Shown in pieces: positions 3,264 through 35,891 of a DNA stretch of 64,000 nucleotides. Source of the DNA: a bacterium (GTDB lineage Bacteria > Patescibacteriota > Minisyncoccia > Moranbacterales > UBA1568). The stretch spans positions 4,934 to 68,933 of the forward strand of contig JAKACP010000001.1 in assembly GCA_021821305.1 (NCBI GenBank), written 5' to 3'. How positions within the stretch are numbered: the first letter of the stretch is position 1; the number at the start of each line of letters is the position of its first letter. A program made the translations under genes and the position numbers. Under the pieces are notes generated by a model. It did not search any database. It was not told the origin of the DNA and saw nothing but the letters and a program-made list of their open reading frames with translations.

Positions 3264-3698
3264 TTACCGCCTTATTTCCCTGTCACCGCCACGATCCAGC
3301 CACTCCTGGAGGATTATTTTCGCCGACTCCGCGTCATCGAAACGGGCTATGCGACGCAGGCCCCGCTCCTTGAGATTCGCCTCGGCCATCCTGGTCGTGA
3401 ACATCTCGTTCTGAAACGCCACGCGGACGGGAAACGATTTTTTCACGGTCTCGCCGAAACGCCTTGCCTCATCGGAACTGTCCGGGCGATTCACATGCGA
3501 AGGGATACCGATGACGACGGTGCCGATCTCCTTCTCTTCGATGAGAGTGCCGAGCCGGTCGAGCAATGTCTCGTCGTTCTTCAGGGTCGCGAGTGCGAAG
3601 GCGATCCGTGTCTCCGCATCGGAGAACGAGACGCCCACGGAGGATGCGCCCCAATCGATACCAAGGAAATTCTCATATTTTGAAATGACCTCTTCCAT
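3264..3698 (-). CDS. ruvX: Holliday junction resolvase-like protein RuvX/YqgF.
   Basis: Starts MEEVISKYENFLGIDWG, the usual YqgF N-terminus carrying the catalytic Asp. About 145 aa. Confidence 0.75.
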   Translation of the reverse strand: MEEVISKYENFLGIDWGASSVGVSFSDAETRIAFALATLKNDETLLDRLGTLIEEKEIGTVVIGIPSHVNRPDSSDEARRFGETVKKSFPVRVAFQNEMFTTRMAEANLKERGLRRIARFDDAESAKIILQEWLDRGGDREIRR

Positions 3699-3732
3699 AA
3701 GAATCTGATACTTTTCAAAAAAATACCGTTTT

Positions 3733-3856
3733 AAAACACAAAACCCAGTGCACAAAAGACCAAAAAAAGAAGTGGGGGAATTTCAGCGGTGTGACGTTCG
3801 TATTCCGTGCCTTGTGCTTTGTTTGGATTTTCGTGTTTTGATGACTGTGTTTTACT
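3733..3856. repeat. Copy A of an imperfect-palindromic intergenic repeat family. It has an A/C-rich arm containing CAGTGCACAAAA and a complementary G/T-rich arm.
   Basis: aaaacacaaaacccagtgcacaaaagaccaaa...ccttgtgctttgtttggattttcgtgttttg. The arms are reverse complements of each other. The element fills the whole map-ruvX spacer and touches the map stop codon. Confidence 0.7.
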
Positions 3857-4625
3857 GAAACCGTGTGACGATTTCCGTTCCCCGTTCGGTCACGATGACC
3901 GTATCCTCGAAGTGGGCCGACAGGCTTCCGTCCTTGGTCACGTACGTCCAGCCGTCATCGGCGACGCGCACGGCGAAATGCCCCATGTTCACCATAGGCT
4001 CGAGCGCGACCGCCATGCCCTTGCGGAACGAGAAGTTCTCCATGCCTTTGAAGAAATAGTTCGGTATCTGCGGATCCTCGTGCAACTCCCGTCCGACCCC
4101 ATGGCCGACGAGATCGCGCACGACGCTGAACCCGTCCCGCCTGACGCGCGACTCCACCGCGGAGGCGAAATCGGACAGCCTCGCGCCGGATCGGATCTTC
4201 GATATGCCACGGTCGAGACTGTCTTTTGCGGCTTCGATAAGCCGCGTCGCGTCCGCCGAGACCGTTCCGATCGGCAGGGTGCGCGCCATATCCGTGACCA
4301 TGCCCTGGAACCGCATCCCGATGTCTATCTTGAGGAGATCGCCCTCGCGCAACACGCGATCGGGCGATGGGATACCATGCACGACCTCCTCGTTCACCGA
4401 TACGCAGACCGCCGCCGGGAACGGCGTACCCCATTCGGCACCATACCCCTTGAACACGGGTATGCCGCCCTTGCCGCGGATGAGTTCCTCCGCCCTGATG
4501 CCGATCTCTCCCGTCGTCACACCCGGTTTCGCCATGAGACACAGCTCGTCGGTGACCGCCGCGAGGCGCTTCCCCGACTCACGCAGTCCGTCGAGCTCGG
4601 TCTCGGTTTTTATCCATTCGTTCAT
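3852..4625 (-). CDS. map: Methionine aminopeptidase type I.
   Basis: MNEWIKTE... with the conserved metal-binding residues of the MetAP fold. It sits after adk in the spc cluster. Confidence 0.85.
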   Translation of the reverse strand: MNEWIKTETELDGLRESGKRLAAVTDELCLMAKPGVTTGEIGIRAEELIRGKGGIPVFKGYGAEWGTPFPAAVCVSVNEEVVHGIPSPDRVLREGDLLKIDIGMRFQGMVTDMARTLPIGTVSADATRLIEAAKDSLDRGISKIRSGARLSDFASAVESRVRRDGFSVVRDLVGHGVGRELHEDPQIPNYFFKGMENFSFRKGMAVALEPMVNMGHFAVRVADDGWTYVTKDGSLSAHFEDTVIVTERGTEIVTRFQ

Positions 4626-4638
4626 AGCGGACAGACTC

Positions 4639-5319
4639 TTAGGCGGACTCTTCCGAAATCCCCGATCTGATATCTTTGAAAATCGTCTCCGGATCGCTCG
4701 CTCCCGAAACCCGGAGCAGCTGTCCTTGTTCCTCGAAATACTTGAGAACGGGAAGCGTCTCATCGTGGAACACCTGCCATCGCTTCCGCACTCCTTCCGC
4801 GGTGTCGTCGGCGCGCTGGCTCACCCTGCCGCCGCACTGCGGGCATCGGTCGCCGACGCTGTCGAAATTCTTCCCGAGGATGAGCTTGGCTCCGCAGTCC
4901 GCGCAGGAAAAGCGCCGTGAGATGCGGTCGACCGAATCCTCCTCCGAAAGCTCGACGAAAATGGCTTTGTTGAAATCTTTTCCGTGTCGATTGAGCACGG
5001 AGAGCACCTCGTGTATCTGACTCTCCCGACGGGGCGCACCGTCGACGATGACCGGTCGGTCGGGCGCTATTTTCCGTATCTCCTGTTCGAGCACCGCCTG
5101 CATGATCTCATCCGCGACGAGTCCGCCCTCCTCGTTCATGATACGGCTCAAATTCTCCCCGAACGGTGTCGGCTCCTGCGCCGCCCTTCGGAGCGCGGAC
5201 CCCATATCGACATGCTCGCATCCGAATTCACGCTTGAAGATATCCGCCTGCGTACTTTTCCCGCTCCCGGGAGGCCCGAGCAGGATATACGCCTTCGGTT
5301 GTTCCTGTTTCTGAGACAT
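4639..5319 (-). CDS. adk: Adenylate kinase with a zinc-binding LID domain.
   Basis: P-loop GPPGSGKSTQ. The LID carries CADCG...CPQCGG, four Cys. It lies downstream of secY. Confidence 0.85.
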   Translation of the reverse strand: MSQKQEQPKAYILLGPPGSGKSTQADIFKREFGCEHVDMGSALRRAAQEPTPFGENLSRIMNEEGGLVADEIMQAVLEQEIRKIAPDRPVIVDGAPRRESQIHEVLSVLNRHGKDFNKAIFVELSEEDSVDRISRRFSCADCGAKLILGKNFDSVGDRCPQCGGRVSQRADDTAEGVRKRWQVFHDETLPVLKYFEEQGQLLRVSGASDPETIFKDIRSGISEESA

Positions 5320-5363
5320 TGATGGATTTCTATTTATGAGCATGCTTGATTCTGGCTTCAGAT

Positions 5364-5497
5364 AAAAAACACAAAGCCCAGTGCACAAAATTCCAAACAA
5401 AGCACAGGGTTCAAATAAACTCAAAGCACAGACGGATACTTCGTATGGATTTCGTAGTTTGTTTGGTTTTTTGTGTTTTGGATATTTGTGTTTTCAC
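5364..5497. repeat. Copy B of the imperfect-palindromic intergenic repeat family.
   Basis: aaaaaacacaaagcccagtgcacaaaattccaaacaaagcaca...gtttgtttggttttttgtgttttggatatttgtgttttc. It fills the whole secY-adk spacer. Confidence 0.7.
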
Positions 5498-5498
5498 C

Positions 5499-6776
5499 TC
5501 AAAATCCCTCGTAATTACGCATGGAAAGCTGGCCCTGCATCTGCTTGATGATCTCGAGTACGACCGAGACGACGATGAGCACGGAGACGCCGCCGAGCTG
5601 CAGCGCCTGGATATTGGTCACGTTCTGGACGATGAACGGCAGTACCGCGATGGAACCGAGGAATATCGCTCCGGCGAGGGTTATCCGGTTGATGATGCGT
5701 CCGAGGTATTCCGCGGTAGCGGTCCCCGGCCGGATGCCCGGTATGAAACCGCCCTGTTTCTGGAGGTTCTCGGATATCTTGTACGGATCGAAGATGACCG
5801 CCGTGTAGAAATACGTGAACACGGCCACGAGGACGAAGTACATGCCGGAATATATCCACGGGTTCTGGAGAAACGCGTTGACGGCGATGGCGATATCGGC
5901 GACCGTCCCGCCGCCTTGCTGGGCGAAATAGCTCGCTATCATGCTCGGGATGAGGATGATCGAGACCGCGAAGATGATCGGGATGACGCCGGCCTGGTTC
6001 ACCTTGAGCGGAAGGTGCGTGGCGGCTCCGCCGTACACCCGGCTCCCCCGCAGACGCTTCGCGTAGGATATCGGGATGATACGCTGGCCGTCGTTGACGA
6101 GCACCACCCCGGCGATCGTCACGAGCGCGATGAGGAAAAACAGGATGTAGGTGAACGCCTGCGACGCGTCCCACGTCGAGAACAGCCGGGCGAACGCCGT
6201 CGGGACGCCGGCGATGATACCGGCGAAGATCATGATGGATACGCCGTTTCCGAGACCCTTTTCGGTTATGAGCTCGCCGAGCCACATGAGGAAGACCGTT
6301 CCGGCGACGGCCGTCACGACCATGACCGCCATCATGAACGGCGACAGGTCCCCGAGCACGTTCTGCGACCGCAGAAGCGAGATCATGGCGAACGACTGGA
6401 CGGTGGCGAGCGGCACGGTCAGCCACCGCGTCCACATATTGAATTTCTGACGGCCGGCTTCACCCTCTTCCTTGTGCAGTTTCTCGAGCTGCGGGGAGAT
6501 CATCGTCATGAGCTGCATGATGATGGAAGCCGTGATGTACGGCGCCACGCCGAGAAGCACGATGGAGATGTTGGAGAGACCTCCGCCGGAGAAGATGTTG
6601 AGGAGGCCGAGCAGCTGGTTTTCCTCGAACAGGCTCCGCAACGCCAAAACATCCACGCCGGGGAGCGGGATGTTGGCGGCGAATCGGTATACCACCAAGA
6701 CACCGAGGATGAAGAGGATTTTCTCCCGTAGTTCAGAAACGCCCCAGATTTGCCGAAGTGCACCGATCATGAGCAT
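5499..6776 (-). CDS. secY: Preprotein translocase subunit SecY.
   Basis: 425 aa polytopic membrane protein with SecY hallmarks (GVAPYITASIIMQL, plug and TM pattern). Located between rplO and adk. Confidence 0.9.
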   Translation of the reverse strand: MLMIGALRQIWGVSELREKILFILGVLVVYRFAANIPLPGVDVLALRSLFEENQLLGLLNIFSGGGLSNISIVLLGVAPYITASIIMQLMTMISPQLEKLHKEEGEAGRQKFNMWTRWLTVPLATVQSFAMISLLRSQNVLGDLSPFMMAVMVVTAVAGTVFLMWLGELITEKGLGNGVSIMIFAGIIAGVPTAFARLFSTWDASQAFTYILFFLIALVTIAGVVLVNDGQRIIPISYAKRLRGSRVYGGAATHLPLKVNQAGVIPIIFAVSIILIPSMIASYFAQQGGGTVADIAIAVNAFLQNPWIYSGMYFVLVAVFTYFYTAVIFDPYKISENLQKQGGFIPGIRPGTATAEYLGRIINRITLAGAIFLGSIAVLPFIVQNVTNIQALQLGGVSVLIVVSVVLEIIKQMQGQLSMRNYEGF

Positions 6777-9145: not shown

Positions 9146-9177
9146 ACGAATGTGTTCTTACCTTCAAAAAGATGTTC

Positions 9178-9363
9178 TTACCACGAGGCCTTCCGCACTC
9201 CGGGGATCTCGCCTTTGGAGGCAAGCTCGCGGAAGCAGATGCGACAGAGATCATACCGGCGGAGATACCCGTGTTTCCGACCGCACTTCCAACACCGATT
9301 CACGACACGGGTGGAAAATTTCGGGTGTTTCTCTGCTCTCGCTTGTACTGAAGTCTTCGCCAT
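9178..9363 (-). CDS. rpsZ: 30S ribosomal protein S14, type Z (zinc-binding).
   Basis: 61 aa with [23 protein letters not shown], a four-Cys arrangement. Confidence 0.85.
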
Positions 9364-9393
9364 AAGAAATTCTTTCGTGTGAAATAAGTCGGG

Positions 9394-9957
9394 TTATTCT
9401 TCGACCCGGAACGGGAAGCCGAGCCGTCGGAACAGGGCCACGCCCTGCTCGCCGTTCTCAGCCGTCGTCGTCACGGTCACCTGCATGCTGAACACCGTCT
9501 GAACTTTTTCCGGGATGATTTCTGGGAATATCATGTGCTCCTTGAGCCCCACGTTGCAGTTGCCGCTCTTGTCGACGGAAGTCACCGGGATACCCTGGAA
9601 ATCGCGTACGCGCGGAAGCGTCGCATAGAAGAACCGATCGAGGAACTCCCACATGCGCTTGCCACGGAGCGTCACCTTGACGCCGACATCGAGCCCTTCG
9701 CGGATCTTGAATCCGGCGATGGCCTTCCTCGCCTTGGTGAGGACCGGCTTCTGCCCGGTGATGGCCTCGAGCGACTGCACGATCTCGTCGACGCGCTGCT
9801 GCTCCTTGAGGAACTTACCCAGGCCGACATTGACCGTCACCTTCGCGATGCGGGGAAGCGCCAGGATATTCTTCCGCCCGAGATCTTTCTTGAGCTCCGG
9901 AAGGATTTCCTGATATTTCGTTTTCATGAGTGCCTGTTTCATAGTTCGATTCTCCAA
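9394..9957 (-). CDS. rplE: 50S ribosomal protein L5.
   Basis: L5 family motifs (NVGLGKFLKE...GIPVTSVDKSGNCNVGLKEHMIFPEI). Confidence 0.9.
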   Translation of the reverse strand: MENRTMKQALMKTKYQEILPELKKDLGRKNILALPRIAKVTVNVGLGKFLKEQQRVDEIVQSLEAITGQKPVLTKARKAIAGFKIREGLDVGVKVTLRGKRMWEFLDRFFYATLPRVRDFQGIPVTSVDKSGNCNVGLKEHMIFPEIIPEKVQTVFSMQVTVTTTAENGEQGVALFRRLGFPFRVEE

Positions 9958-10977: not shown

Positions 10978-11178
10978 CTATGCCGTTAATGCTTCTTCGC
11001 GCTCGATCGTCAGGATACGCGCGATGTCCTTCTTCACGGCGCGATATTCGCGGTGATTCTTCGTCTCGCGCCCGGCGATGGAGAAACGGAGTTCCCGTCC
11101 TTTCGTCCGGAGCTCGAGCAGGAGCTTCTCCCGTTCGGCCTGATTTTTCTCACGCAGTTCCTTGATCTTCATATGCAT
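10978..11178 (-). CDS. rpmC: 50S ribosomal protein L29.
   Basis: MKIKELREK...L...LRF, a short helical protein in the L29 position. Confidence 0.85.
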   Translation of the reverse strand: MHMKIKELREKNQAEREKLLLELRTKGRELRFSIAGRETKNHREYRAVKKDIARILTIEREEALTA

Positions 11179-11250
11179 TTCTTAGAACCTGTCCAACATC
11201 TCACCGCGTCGAATGAAATTAAATGCTTTCCGCTTGTCGGATAAAAGTCC

Positions 11251-11334
11251 CTGATTTCGGCTGCAAATCATTTATCGCTCGTCGGCGTATCCCGATATGC
11301 CTCCTCACGATGCATGATTTTCGCTCGAAATCAG
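11251..11334 (-). other. About 84 nt hairpin (arms ctgatttcg/cgaaatcag) inside an unusual ~190 bp lower-GC spacer between rplP and rpmC. Function unknown.
   Basis: Seen directly in the sequence. rplP stops at 11371 and rpmC starts at 11172-11178. Confidence 0.45.
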
Positions 11335-11370
11335 AAACTTTTCTCTCGACATGATCTCTTGTACAGGTTC

Positions 11371-11793
11371 TTATTCGGTTCCATGCCGGTCGACGAATTT
11401 CGTCTTGATGGCCAGTTTGTGCGAGGCGAGCCGCATCGCTTCCATCGCCAGTTCTCTCGGGATACCGTCGAGCTCGAAGAGCATCCTTCCGGCGGTCACC
11501 TTGGCGACATAGTGGTCGACGCTTCCCTTTCCCTTTCCCATCGGAGTCTGTTCCCCCTTCTTCGTCATCGGCTTGTCGGGAAACACCCGGATCCACACCT
11601 TGCCGCCGCGATGGATGGAACGGGTCATCGCCCGACGGGCGGACTCGATCTGGCGGGCCGAAATAAGTCCGGTTTCGAGGGCCTTGAGACCGAAGCTCCC
11701 GAAGCTCACCCGAGCGCCGGCAGTCGTCGTTCCCTTCGGCCATCCGCCACGATGGACCTTCCGATGTTTCACTTTTCGCGGCATGAGCAACAT
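11371..11793 (-). CDS. rplP: 50S ribosomal protein L16.
   Basis: MPRKVKHRKVHRG...GMGKGKGSVDHYVAKV, the L16 signature. Confidence 0.9.
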   Translation of the reverse strand: MLLMPRKVKHRKVHRGGWPKGTTTAGARVSFGSFGLKALETGLISARQIESARRAMTRSIHRGGKVWIRVFPDKPMTKKGEQTPMGKGKGSVDHYVAKVTAGRMLFELDGIPRELAMEAMRLASHKLAIKTKFVDRHGTE

Positions 11794-34261: not shown

Positions 34262-35716
34262 ATGAGCGGAAGCTCGGCGAAAAAATCAGCGATCATCATC
34301 GGCATGCTCCTCTCCGCCGGAATCGTGTTCCTCGGATGGAAGTTTTTCGCCGTATCGGAACGGATCCACATCGAAAACCCCTCGGCTCGGGGAACCTATG
34401 AGAATCTCTCGTCGATACTCCCCGGCGGCGAGCGCGAGAAACTCCACGGCGAAGACGAGGGCCGGATCAATATCCTGCTCCTCGGCCGCGCCGGAGAGAA
34501 GTATCCCGGCAAACACCTGACCGACACCGTCATGCTCGCCTCGATCGACACGAAGGAGCATCGGGCGGGATTTCTCTCGCTGCCCCGCGATCTCTACGCG
34601 CCGATTCCGGGAACGAACCTCTACACGAAACTCAACTCGCTCTATCAGTACGGGCTCTCCTCGGGCGACGATGCGGATATCGTCCGCCGCGCCGTCGAAC
34701 ACATGACTGGCGTCGACGTCCCTTACTTCATCAGTCTCGATTTCGACGGCTTCGAGCGCATCATCGACGACCTCGGCGGGGTGAAGATCTACTCGGAGCG
34801 CGATATCCGCGACACCCGCTACCCCGGCAAGAACTACAGCTACGAGACGTTCGAGCTCTCCGCGGGCTGGCACGAGCTCGACGGCAAGACGGCGCTCAAG
34901 TACGCCCGCGAACGGCATTCCGATCCGGAGGGCGATTTCGGACGCGCCAAGCGCCAACAGCAGATCATCAAGGCGGCGCAGGAAAAGGCGTTCTCGGCGA
35001 AAACCTATCTCAACGCCTTCACGATCACCCGTCTCTTCGAGACGCTCGGCGACAGCGTCCGCACCAATCTCTCGATCGCCGAGATCGCGTCGCTCGCCGA
35101 ACTCGGCAAGACGACCGACCTCCGCAACGCCTCGACCGTCGTCGTCGACGCGTGGCGAAAAGAGAGCCTCCTGCGTGTCTCGCACGTGGAGGTCTCGGGT
35201 GTCCGCGCGTTCATCCTCGTCCCCCGTACCGGAAACTGGAGCGAGATCCGGGAAGTCTCCGCGCATATCTTCGATCAGGAAGACATCCGAAAACGCACCG
35301 AGCAGGTAGCGCTCGAAGCGCCGAGCATACTCGTCATATCGCGTCCGGAAGACGCCTCCAAGGCGGCGGCGTTCGCGCGGACGGTGAAAGGCGCTCTCGG
35401 GAGCGGGCTCGACGTAGACACCGCGATATCGCCGACGCTGGAAAAATCCGTGAAAAGCGCTATCATGGACAGGACATCCCTCGGCAAGCCCTATTCGTTC
35501 GACAGCCTGCTCCGCACCTTCGGCCTTGAGAAGTCAGCCGCCTCCGTTCCCACGGATGTCAGGAACACGGCAATCTCGAAAGCCGATTTCGTCATACTCT
35601 ACGGCGAGAGCCCGATCGATACTCCGGTATCGGAAACCACGCTCGATGAAACCGACGGAGACGGCGCAGGGATACAGGACGAATTCTCCGATTTTCTCGA
35701 ACCGCAGAAGAGATAG
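34262..35716 (+). CDS. LytR-CpsA-Psr (LCP) family cell-envelope phosphotransferase.
   Basis: N-terminal TM, then an LCP core (INILLLGRAGEKYPGKHLTDTVMLASI...LPRDLY...GGV). Confidence 0.75.
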   Translation: MSGSSAKKSAIIIGMLLSAGIVFLGWKFFAVSERIHIENPSARGTYENLSSILPGGEREKLHGEDEGRINILLLGRAGEKYPGKHLTDTVMLASIDTKEHRAGFLSLPRDLYAPIPGTNLYTKLNSLYQYGLSSGDDADIVRRAVEHMTGVDVPYFISLDFDGFERIIDDLGGVKIYSERDIRDTRYPGKNYSYETFELSAGWHELDGKTALKYARERHSDPEGDFGRAKRQQQIIKAAQEKAFSAKTYLNAFTITRLFETLGDSVRTNLSIAEIASLAELGKTTDLRNASTVVVDAWRKESLLRVSHVEVSGVRAFILVPRTGNWSEIREVSAHIFDQEDIRKRTEQVALEAPSILVISRPEDASKAAAFARTVKGALGSGLDVDTAISPTLEKSVKSAIMDRTSLGKPYSFDSLLRTFGLEKSAASVPTDVRNTAISKADFVILYGESPIDTPVSETTLDETDGDGAGIQDEFSDFLEPQKR

Positions 35717-35724
35717 GATCTCTT

Positions 35725-35866
35725 CAAAACACAAAACACAGTGCACAAAATACCAAACAAAACACAAAGAGACAAAGCACGAACGGGGGCAGGGTTTTGT
35801 TTGTGTTTTTGTGGTTTGTAATCTGTGTTTTGTTTGGATGTTTGTGTTTTGAAAGTTGTGTTTTCT
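35725..35866. repeat. Copy C of the imperfect-palindromic intergenic repeat family.
   Basis: caaaacacaaaacacagtgcacaaaataccaaacaaaacaca...ttttgtttgtgtttttgtggtttg...tgtgttttgtttggatgtttgtgtttt. It fills the LCP-pth spacer. Confidence 0.7.
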
Positions 35867-35891
35867 GGTCAAGATTCTAAAGGACATTTCT

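Follow-up and report, generated by a model that had tools for sequence, protein, structure and literature searches.

Three repeats in the operon spacers of a moranbacterial contig

The stretch of DNA analysed here, hereafter the window, comprises 64,000 nucleotides of contig JAKACP010000001.1 (assembly GCA_021821305.1) from a member of Candidatus Moranbacteria (Patescibacteria), and carries three related repeats, elements A, B and C, in the spacers between map and ruvX, between secY and adk, and between a LytR_cpsA_psr (LCP) gene and pth (Table 1). The affiliation with Candidatus Moranbacteria/Moraniibacteriota follows from adenylate kinase homologues, and the contig derives from metagenome assemblies. 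A sequence-only reading of the window had proposed a three-copy family at these sites, and this is borne out by several observations. The copies, 128-146 bp long by the limits of a covariance model, can be aligned with one another over their entire length, and by the same model all three carry the CAGTGCAC arm on the plus strand. The 12-mer CAGTGCACAAAA occurs three times in the 64-kb window where 0.06 occurrences are expected, a count reached in none of 100 shuffles, and all 12 of the window's exact TGTGTTTT octamers lie inside A, B and C (0.44 expected). The elements are also distinct in composition, with a G+C content of 32-42% vs 55-62% for the window. A search of the window for a fourth copy, both with an nhmmer profile built from the three copies and with the covariance model, returned none. 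The flanking genes named by that reading agree with protein family matches, namely SecY, ADK, Peptidase_M24 (map) and RuvX for the first two spacers and LytR_cpsA_psr and Pept_tRNA_hydro for the third.

The family had not been recognised in that reading, and no curated RNA family matches it. At the Rfam gathering thresholds tRNAs alone pass in the window and no family covers the elements, while a relaxed search gave sub-threshold matches only, these being mostly generic microRNA-precursor hairpins over the elements, together with a few scattered small RNA, cis-regulatory and small nucleolar RNA matches. Neither the window nor 16 related loci contain rRNA genes. As to placement, each copy had been thought to fill its spacer from stop codon to start codon, and this is right at one end only: the elements begin -2 to +8 nt relative to the upstream stop codon, the map stop codon (3852-3854, minus strand) even overlapping the last heptamer of element A, but 34, 44 and 27 nt of other sequence separate the hairpins A, B and C from the next start.

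Table 1. Coordinates of the three elements, their parts and their adjoining features in the window
Feature	Position	Strand	Remarks
Element A, gene-less heptamer hairpin	3729..3856	+	map-ruvX spacer; covariance-model score 103.5 bits
Element A parts	left (A/C) arm ~3732-3769; apical region 3770-3816; right (G/T) arm ~3817-3854
Element B, gene-less heptamer hairpin	5362..5497	+	secY-adk spacer, within the spc ribosomal operon; covariance-model score 112.6 bits
Element B parts	left arm ~5366-5401; apical region 5402-5457; right arm ~5458-5494
Element C, gene-less heptamer hairpin	35722..35867	+	LCP-pth spacer; covariance-model score 135 bits
Element C parts	left arm ~35726-35776; right arm ~35794-35864		right arm with two 33-nt sub-repeats
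Element A tail	3699..3731	-	up to the ruvX start codon (ATG at 3698, minus strand)
Element B tail	5320..5361	-	up to the adk start codon (ATG at 5319, minus strand)
Element C tail	35868..35891	+	up to the pth start codon (35892)
map (methionine aminopeptidase)	3852..4625	-	upstream of element A
secY	5499..6776	-	upstream of element B; stop codon 4 nt from the element
LytR_cpsA_psr (LCP) gene	34262..35716	+	upstream of element C; stop codon 8 nt from the element

Anatomy, distribution and dispensability of the hairpins

Read 5' to 3' on either DNA strand, an element consists of an A/C-rich arm, a variable apical region and a G/T-rich arm. This arm composition had been described correctly but incompletely, as the arms are tandem arrays of a degenerate heptamer with a consensus of about ACACAAA on one side and TTTGTGT on the other. 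In copy C, the series runs ACACAAA ACACAGT GCACAAA ATACCAA ACAAAAC ACAAAGA and onward, and the conserved heptamer core is ACACAGT-GCACAAA-ANNCCAA-ACAAA. Across 36 arms from 18 copies the self-match is stronger at a lag of seven than at any other (mean z 1.8, with z>2 in 16 arms), lags 14 and 21 coming next, whereas no other lag exceeds z = 2 in more than three arms. The best-conserved block of one arm reads ACAAAAC-N-CAGTGCACAAAA-NN-CCAAACAAA. In the opposite arm of most Moranbacteria copies CAAAACAC stands in place of the palindromic CAGTGCAC, so that one RNA strand gains G·U pairs and the other C/A mismatches, while the full motif is present on both arms in some Saccharibacteria copies (L025). 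The apical regions of the window copies measure 20-55 nt and hold no open reading frame (ORF). Compared with dinucleotide shuffles, copies B and C fold far more stably on both strands (z -5.0 and -4.9 for B, -5.9 and -4.0 for C), with none of 200 shuffles as good.

Could these be ordinary bidirectional intrinsic terminators that resemble one another by chance? Each hairpin ends in TGTGTTTT on both strands and element C contains one called terminator-like site, yet the stems are long, A/T-rich and mismatched rather than short and G+C-rich, and such calls are no commoner in the elements than in shuffles; neither promoter nor terminator signals rise above the shuffled background. Copy B, moreover, lies within the spc ribosomal operon, where relatives have 12 nt between the same two genes, and a conserved core of about 30 nt is common to several phyla, all of which makes chance likeness of terminators exceedingly improbable.

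Three further observations concern the motif itself. Copies with a left arm only occur in L112 (about 1449-1495), L089 and L082 (920-1032), and directly downstream of the last of these lies a toxin-antitoxin pair (L082 356-899), Phd/YefM-like and RelE/ParE-like by visual comparison of the N-termini. Some copies (L025 2239-2365; L041 85-231) contain CACAGTG-C-ACAAAAACC, which looks like V(D)J recombination signals with their heptamer and nonamer; the motif is subterminal, its spacer is 1 nt and no RAG- or Transib-like gene was seen, and we regard the likeness as a coincidence of an A/C-rich heptamer array. Finally, the 14-mer ACACAGTGCACAAA, which comprises the two core heptamers of the element, is repeated many times in tandem on contig L083 (about 190-1000), whose DNA has 42% G+C and a mariner/SETMAR-like ORF; this contig is probably eukaryotic and the array is taken to be a coincidental microsatellite.

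The distribution of gene-less copies was followed by two scans. When one genome of each species was scanned for a 17-base pattern, matches were about as many as chance would give, and a profile then picked out the true copies; full-length copies found in this way are confined to Patescibacteria, namely to two genomes each of Moraniibacteriota and Saccharibacteria and to one of Taylorbacteria. Seven further contigs bearing copies, with as many as three in 4.9 kb, came from a scan of metagenomes that used another part of the core. Every copy examined, in the window and in relatives, sits between protein-coding genes, nearly always co-directional housekeeping genes, the neighbours including gyrA, a methyltransferase, a solute-binding protein, rplY (L25), a prfA-like release factor, sufB/sufD, a sortase and glycosyltransferases. 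The family inserts into very short spacers between co-transcribed housekeeping genes. Five motif matches in viral contigs lack the full element and the phage and plasmid collections gave no blastn match, and a viral origin was rejected. Copies on L034 had seemed to occupy the same secY and map sites as those of the window, but BLASTP shows the neighbours to be unrelated (UDP-glucose dehydrogenase, GT2 and GT4); nor do these gene-less copies share a junction with the gene-bearing cassette of L118 described below, the flanking proteins being merely 26-27% identical.

The spacers of relatives offer a direct view of gain and loss. The contigs compared are those whose Adk is 84% (L068, L069), 70% (L070) and 64% (L072) identical to that of the window. 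Both A and B are present in L068 and L069. The secY-adk spacer, element included, measures 177 nt in the window, L068 and L069, and it is 12 nt long in L070 and L072, and the map-ruvX spacer of L072 is 6 nt long; a search for empty sites in relatives, which the sequence-only reading had recommended, thus succeeds. The map-ruvX spacer of L070 (GCA_018061645.1) holds a diverged A/C...G/T hairpin of 137 nt with near-perfect arms (11456-11592), missed by nhmmer and found by the covariance model (38 bits, E ~2.5e-5), which is oriented like copy A with respect to the genes and folds with z -3.7 and -4.1. This hairpin may be orthologous to copy A and old, or another member of the family may have been inserted there independently; the pattern as a whole suggests that the map-ruvX insertion is the older and the secY-adk insertion the younger. 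The ends of the neighbouring genes differ too: compared with L070 and L072, the map stop codon of the window is displaced downstream by one codon, and its last two bases double as the initial A's of the terminal heptamer of the element; the adk start is about four codons further upstream than the one used in empty-site relatives. The tail of element B is missing at empty sites and 98-100% conserved with L068, while element A and its tail are 96-97% conserved.

The element is gained and lost at the DNA level and is dispensable. The proposal of a dispersed DNA-level repeat is upheld, both by these empty orthologous spacers and by the copies in unrelated spacers of other genomes and phyla. The argument originally given for it, that mixed orientation favours a DNA element over an RNA, carries little weight, as a near-palindrome yields a 5' A/C-rich arm, a loop and a 3' G/U-rich arm when transcribed in either orientation, so that mixed orientation is compatible with a role at the RNA level. 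Among the copies of clear polarity nine are 'forward' and two (A and B of the window) 'reverse', a difference that is not significant.

Such a role might be one that serves the host, the hairpin stabilising the upstream mRNA, uncoupling the translation of cistrons or setting the ratio of expression within the operon, all of which would be compatible with a selfish origin. Actions of this kind have been proposed for REP sequences (repetitive extragenic palindromes) and for cyanobacterial heptamer hairpins. The site is always just after a stop codon within an operon, the map-ruvX site of the 70% relative still holds its diverged hairpin, and the heptamer hairpins of hupS-hupL have been discussed in such terms (PMC2670836). 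Between the window and L068, in addition, the elements and tails are 96-100% identical while the adjacent coding DNA of secY, adk and map is mostly 72-90% identical; this, however, may reflect recent recombination as an alternative to constraint, because the identity profile between the two is a mosaic. Close relatives with the same operons and spacers of 6-12 nt do without the element, the flanked genes share nothing and both orientations occur, and we consider a host-serving function unlikely.

Two other features of the window's ribosomal operon came to light in these comparisons. The rplP-rpmC spacer (11172-11371) measures about 190 nt vs 9-10 nt in L068 and L070, a second and unrelated insertion that contains a 97-nt hairpin (about 11244-11340, minus strand, z -4.9 and -3.9) not built of A/C and G/T heptamers. 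At about 9150-9400 (L001 1890-2139) a gap of 249 nt separates the called rplE and rpsH genes; L070 has a 61-aa S14 gene there, and the gap, which shows indels relative to L068, probably holds an uncalled short rpsN.

PF05635 genes between inverted heptamer arrays

The key to the family lies in its larger relatives. Three contigs found by the DNA motif alone (L082, L098 and L112) carry an ORF of 120-122 aa between an A/C-rich and a G/T-rich arm, whose product belongs to PF05635, a family entitled "23S rRNA-intervening sequence protein" (E 1e-12 to 4e-18), and to TIGR02436, "four helix bundle protein", with 2rld as its closest solved relative and homologues annotated from Parcubacteria, Portnoybacteria, Liptonbacteria, Moraniibacteriota and Microgenomates. 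Five more cassettes were found by the protein alone (L115-117, L118/119, L120, L121 and L122), and in all five the A/C-rich heptamer arm abuts the ATG and the G/T-rich arm begins at the stop codon, bringing the cassettes with a PF05635 gene between arms to eight in the candidate phyla radiation (CPR). The profile of the window copies matches L118 in two pieces, model positions 2-72 upstream of the gene and 72-147 downstream, so that the gene occupies the loop position of the window copies. When the ORF is removed in silico by joining 80 nt upstream to 80 nt downstream, the seven CPR cassettes scored (L112, cut by the contig end, was left out) match the gene-less profile nearly end to end with 22.7-51.7 bits, and ten non-CPR cassettes treated likewise reach at most 1.7 bits. 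On this sequence evidence, elements A, B and C are homologues of the arms that flank the PF05635 genes in these cassettes.

Complementarity of the arms across the gene is strong in L082, L098, L115 and L120 (z -4.7 to -7.3, none of 200 mononucleotide shuffles as good) and weak in L118. Between L082 and L120 the protein gene shows a dN of 0.075 and a dS of 1.84, dS being saturated in other pairs, and by this measure the cassette protein is under purifying selection and functional; the core of the arms survives even though the synonymous sites of the associated gene are saturated. In the Moraniibacteriota contigs L115-L117 the cassette (4001-4381) lies inside a type IV secretion-like cluster with PrgI, TraC-like and VirB4-like genes.

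A similar arrangement is found well outside the CPR. With tblastn, PF05635 genes were found on plasmids of Nostoc, Dolichospermum, Planktothrix, Aulosira, Anabaena, Gloeocapsa, Candidatus Chlorohelix and Bernardetia, where they sit between co-directional genes, each with an upstream heptamer array and the reverse complement of that array downstream. The bracketing arrays include (GTAATTC)n/(GAATTAC)n, (TTCAAAA)n/(TTTTGAA)n and (GGTCGGA)n/(TCCGACC)n, as well as (AATCCCC)n plus (AATCGTA)n with their complements, those flanking the cyanobacterial genes being perfect; CCCCAAT is the classical unit of STRR1, one of the short tandemly repeated repetitive (STRR) sequences of cyanobacteria. Taking 15 PF05635 genes from CPR, cyanobacteria, Chloroflexota and Bacteroidota together, the median z for flank complementarity is -4.5 vs 0.1 for 26 other ORFs of the same loci (Mann-Whitney p = 1.6e-7). 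A cassette of Nostoc flagelliforme recurs in Dolichospermum at 81% identity over arms and ORF only, in a different gene context, and its heptamer arrays are also present at many other places in those plasmids. When it is compared with the Nostoc C057 allele, homology resumes exactly where the downstream array ends; C057 was rejected as a clean empty allele, as unrelated DNA stands there in place of the cassette and the right boundary alone is sharp. In Coxiella, GACAGAT heptamers lie upstream of the S23p ORF of the rRNA intervening sequence (PMC4990558). The linkage of PF05635 to inverted heptamer arrays appears to be new, no earlier report having been found.

On plasmids of cyanobacteria and Chloroflexota (L126 Planktothrix p1, L123, L131, L132 and L130) the PF05635 cassette often lies within defence operons, for example flanked by DISARM drmD and a BREX PglX methyltransferase, by helicase and DNA methylase genes or by cas2 and cas1, or adjoining a HEPN gene.

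These gene-bearing relatives bear on the suggestion that the repeats are MITE-like or REP-like, that is, miniature inverted-repeat transposable elements or repetitive extragenic palindromes. A classical MITE would be a non-autonomous DNA transposon bounded by terminal inverted repeats and dependent on a DDE or HUH transposase whose gene lies elsewhere, and such elements are likewise multi-copy, with insertion polymorphism between relatives; the inverted arms, the intergenic position, the presence and absence at orthologous sites and the occurrence in several phyla would all fit. The target-site duplication that had been proposed as a check is visible neither at the boundaries of A, B and C nor in the filled-vs-empty comparisons, the boundaries being uncertain by a few nucleotides. 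No transposase adjoins any copy, and none is encoded within the termini among the about 40 member-bearing loci compared; the sole gene-bearing relatives carry PF05635 in the loop instead, which points to the rRNA intervening-sequence type and not to a transposon. The whole element, furthermore, is a heptamer hairpin rather than unique DNA between short terminal repeats, and it is absent from the phage and plasmid collections searched. A MITE origin is thus very unlikely. REPs and the bacterial interspersed mosaic elements that they form are clustered palindromes of 20-40 nt associated with a REP-associated tyrosine transposase (RAYT), and the elements, as single hairpins of 128-146 nt, are too large for a REP unit; no RAYT gene was seen in the loci examined.

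The conservation of the arms raises a further alternative, namely that the heptamers are sites for a DNA-binding protein, possibly a PF05635 pentamer, on duplex or cruciform DNA, serving for instance nucleoid organisation, replication or recombination, and that the RNA hairpin is incidental. The persistence of the arms across phyla beside saturated synonymous sites, the fixed period of 7 nt and the left-arm-only copies speak for it, and Nostoc has been postulated to possess a protein that binds heptamers (bioRxiv 10.1101/2022.06.06.494920). Nearly all arrays, however, come as inverted, pairable pairs, a pairing that duplex sites would not need, and a 7-nt period does not match the helical repeat of DNA. 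A DNA-level array of this kind seems to us decidedly unlikely.

Probable intervening-sequence-like cassettes in mRNA

The reading that we prefer, and hold to be probable, is that the window copies are gene-less members of a family of heptamer-hairpin cassettes that resemble rRNA intervening sequences (IVSs) and occupy mRNA spacers. A full cassette would consist of an A/C heptamer array, a loop and a reverse-complement G/T array, with a PF05635/TIGR02436 gene of about 120 aa in the loop of full-size members; the window copies would have kept the arms, their gene being lost or never present. The IVSs of rRNA have the same build, with a stem formed from terminal inverted repeats and a loop that carries S23p, and RNase III excises them (PMC4990558). 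The rRNA genes of CPR bacteria contain PF05635-encoding insertions and many short ORF-less ones (PMC11270868), and PF05635 is also the family of Avd, an accessory protein of diversity-generating retroelements (PMC10053308).

Under the IVS-like reading, the element would have no promoter of its own and be transcribed along with the host operon, whereupon the arms would pair into an imperfect stem of about 35-45 bp. RNase III, by analogy with rRNA IVSs, probably cleaves this stem; the cut would split the polycistronic mRNA between cistrons with both reading frames unharmed, and in full-size members it would release the loop mRNA. Cleavage would be tolerated because it falls between cistrons, the same logic that applies to IVSs in rRNA, and the element is probably selfish or near-neutral for the host. 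As the arms are conserved in sequence beyond the need for pairing, and across phyla, a sequence-specific partner is indicated, most plausibly a PF05635 protein that recognises the arms in trans. New copies might arise by recombination between similar arrays, by template switching at palindromes or through an RNA intermediate.

Several points weigh against the IVS-like reading. Copy A, which had been said to fold into a long hairpin like the others, hardly beats its shuffles (z -1.1 and -1.4), so that the claim is secure for B and C and marginal for A, and the mRNA of both A and B is the strand on which the core GTG faces AAA as C/A mismatches. In 29 aligned rows 90% of stem cells are paired, compared with 38-48% when the partners are slid by 1-3 columns, but shuffle controls of this test reach 88.7%. 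Two-sided changes occur in only 2 of 28 pairs, covariation being weak because the arms are conserved in sequence; covariation was dropped as a proof of structure for that reason, and compensatory change neither proves nor disproves the stem. Scans that rely on a motif favour copies with an intact core, and the sample is biased accordingly. No PF05635 gene is encoded in the 64-kb window, and a trans-acting PF05635 partner in the window's genome is therefore putative. Descent may have run either way, by loss of the gene from a cassette or by its capture by a hairpin. Finally, cleavage by RNase III is proposed by analogy, and a tblastn search for rnc in the collected sequences gave no match, a result that is uninformative.

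The closest known counterparts are the IVSs of 23S rRNA with S23p/PF05635 in Coxiella, Leptospira and Xanthomonas (PMC4990558). They share with the elements the terminal inverted repeats and long stem, a loop that holds a PF05635 four-helix-bundle gene or nothing, insertion in a transcribed region where excision of the hairpin is harmless, and a sporadic distribution that suggests horizontal spread by no known mobility mechanism; in the Coxiella IVS, heptamer repeats (GACAGAT) also lie beside the ORF. They differ in that IVSs sit in rRNA helices (23S helices 9, 25 or 45, and 16S in CPR) whereas the elements sit in the spacers of protein operons, in that the window copies have no ORF, and in that the Coxiella ORF is decaying whereas the ORF of the CPR cassettes is under strong purifying selection. 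Excision by RNase III is established for rRNA IVSs and presumed by analogy for the elements.

A second set of counterparts consists of lineage-specific heptamer repeats, namely the cyanobacterial STRR of hupS-hupL (PMC2670836), the inverted GGGAATC pairs of Xanthomonas (PMC4692102) and the TAACTGA repeats of Beggiatoaceae (PMC4679880). Like the elements, these are tandem 7-nt units in intergenic DNA, often in intra-operon spacers, that frequently form convergent pairs able to fold into hairpins and whose function and spread are unexplained; the cyanobacterial plasmid PF05635 genes are bracketed by arrays of exactly the STRR type. STRR-type repeats are perfect, however, whereas the units of the elements are degenerate forms of about ACACAAA, the core ACACAGT-GCACAAA being fixed, whole element copies can be aligned over about 130 nt and across phyla, and the host is a member of Candidatus Moranbacteria rather than a cyanobacterium.

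We tentatively extend this comparison to a joint proposal, which is possible though short of an even prospect: that PF05635 proteins and inverted heptamer arrays form one widespread, hitherto unrecognised class of selfish cassette, spanning Patescibacteria, cyanobacteria (STRR), Chloroflexota, the heptamer pairs of Xanthomonas type and the classical 23S rRNA IVSs, in which a pentameric Avd-like protein recognises its own heptamers and drives spread or retention, orphan hairpins, the three of the window among them, being non-autonomous derivatives or landing pads.

Other repeat families invite comparison. Enterobacterial repetitive intergenic consensus (ERIC) sequences or intergenic repeat units (IRU), the neisserial Correia elements (NEMIS) and the pneumococcal repeat units (RUP) are imperfect palindromes of about 100-150 bp that are co-transcribed with the genes beside them, can lie either way round and are polymorphic in their insertion between strains. 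RNase III acts on Correia elements, and these, like RUP, show target duplications and have plausible transposase partners. None of these families is known to be built of heptamers or linked to PF05635, and the elements bear no sequence relation to them (no Rfam match). The guide arrays of TIGR-Tas systems, in which tandem units with variable spacers adjoin a Nop-domain Tas gene, were also considered and set aside, as the copies share their full-length sequence and are single hairpins between housekeeping genes.

In the literature, a search by sequence motif gave only unrelated matches to human and plant primers, and one on CPR plus MITE gave nothing relevant. The papers on heptamer repeats (PMC2670836, PMC4692102, PMC4679880 and bioRxiv 10.1101/2022.06.06.494920) call their function unknown and leave PF05635 unmentioned. 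Conversely, no copies in operon spacers and no general link to heptamer arrays were found in the literature on IVSs and PF05635 (including PMC4990558, PMC11270868 and PMC10053308), which is not proof of absence.

The analysis touches on decades-old puzzles, among them how IVSs spread and what purpose is served by the abundant intergenic heptamer repeats of cyanobacteria, Xanthomonas and the giant sulfur bacteria. It ties the proteins of rRNA IVSs and the heptamer repeats, which the literature has treated separately, to one kind of element. If true, this would supply a concrete and testable candidate for a heptamer-binding factor, and it would mean that IVS-type elements colonise the spacers of mRNA operons besides rRNA. 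It would also give annotators of Patescibacteria, whose genomes are very compact, a class of repeat to expect between essential genes, including those of ribosomal protein operons.

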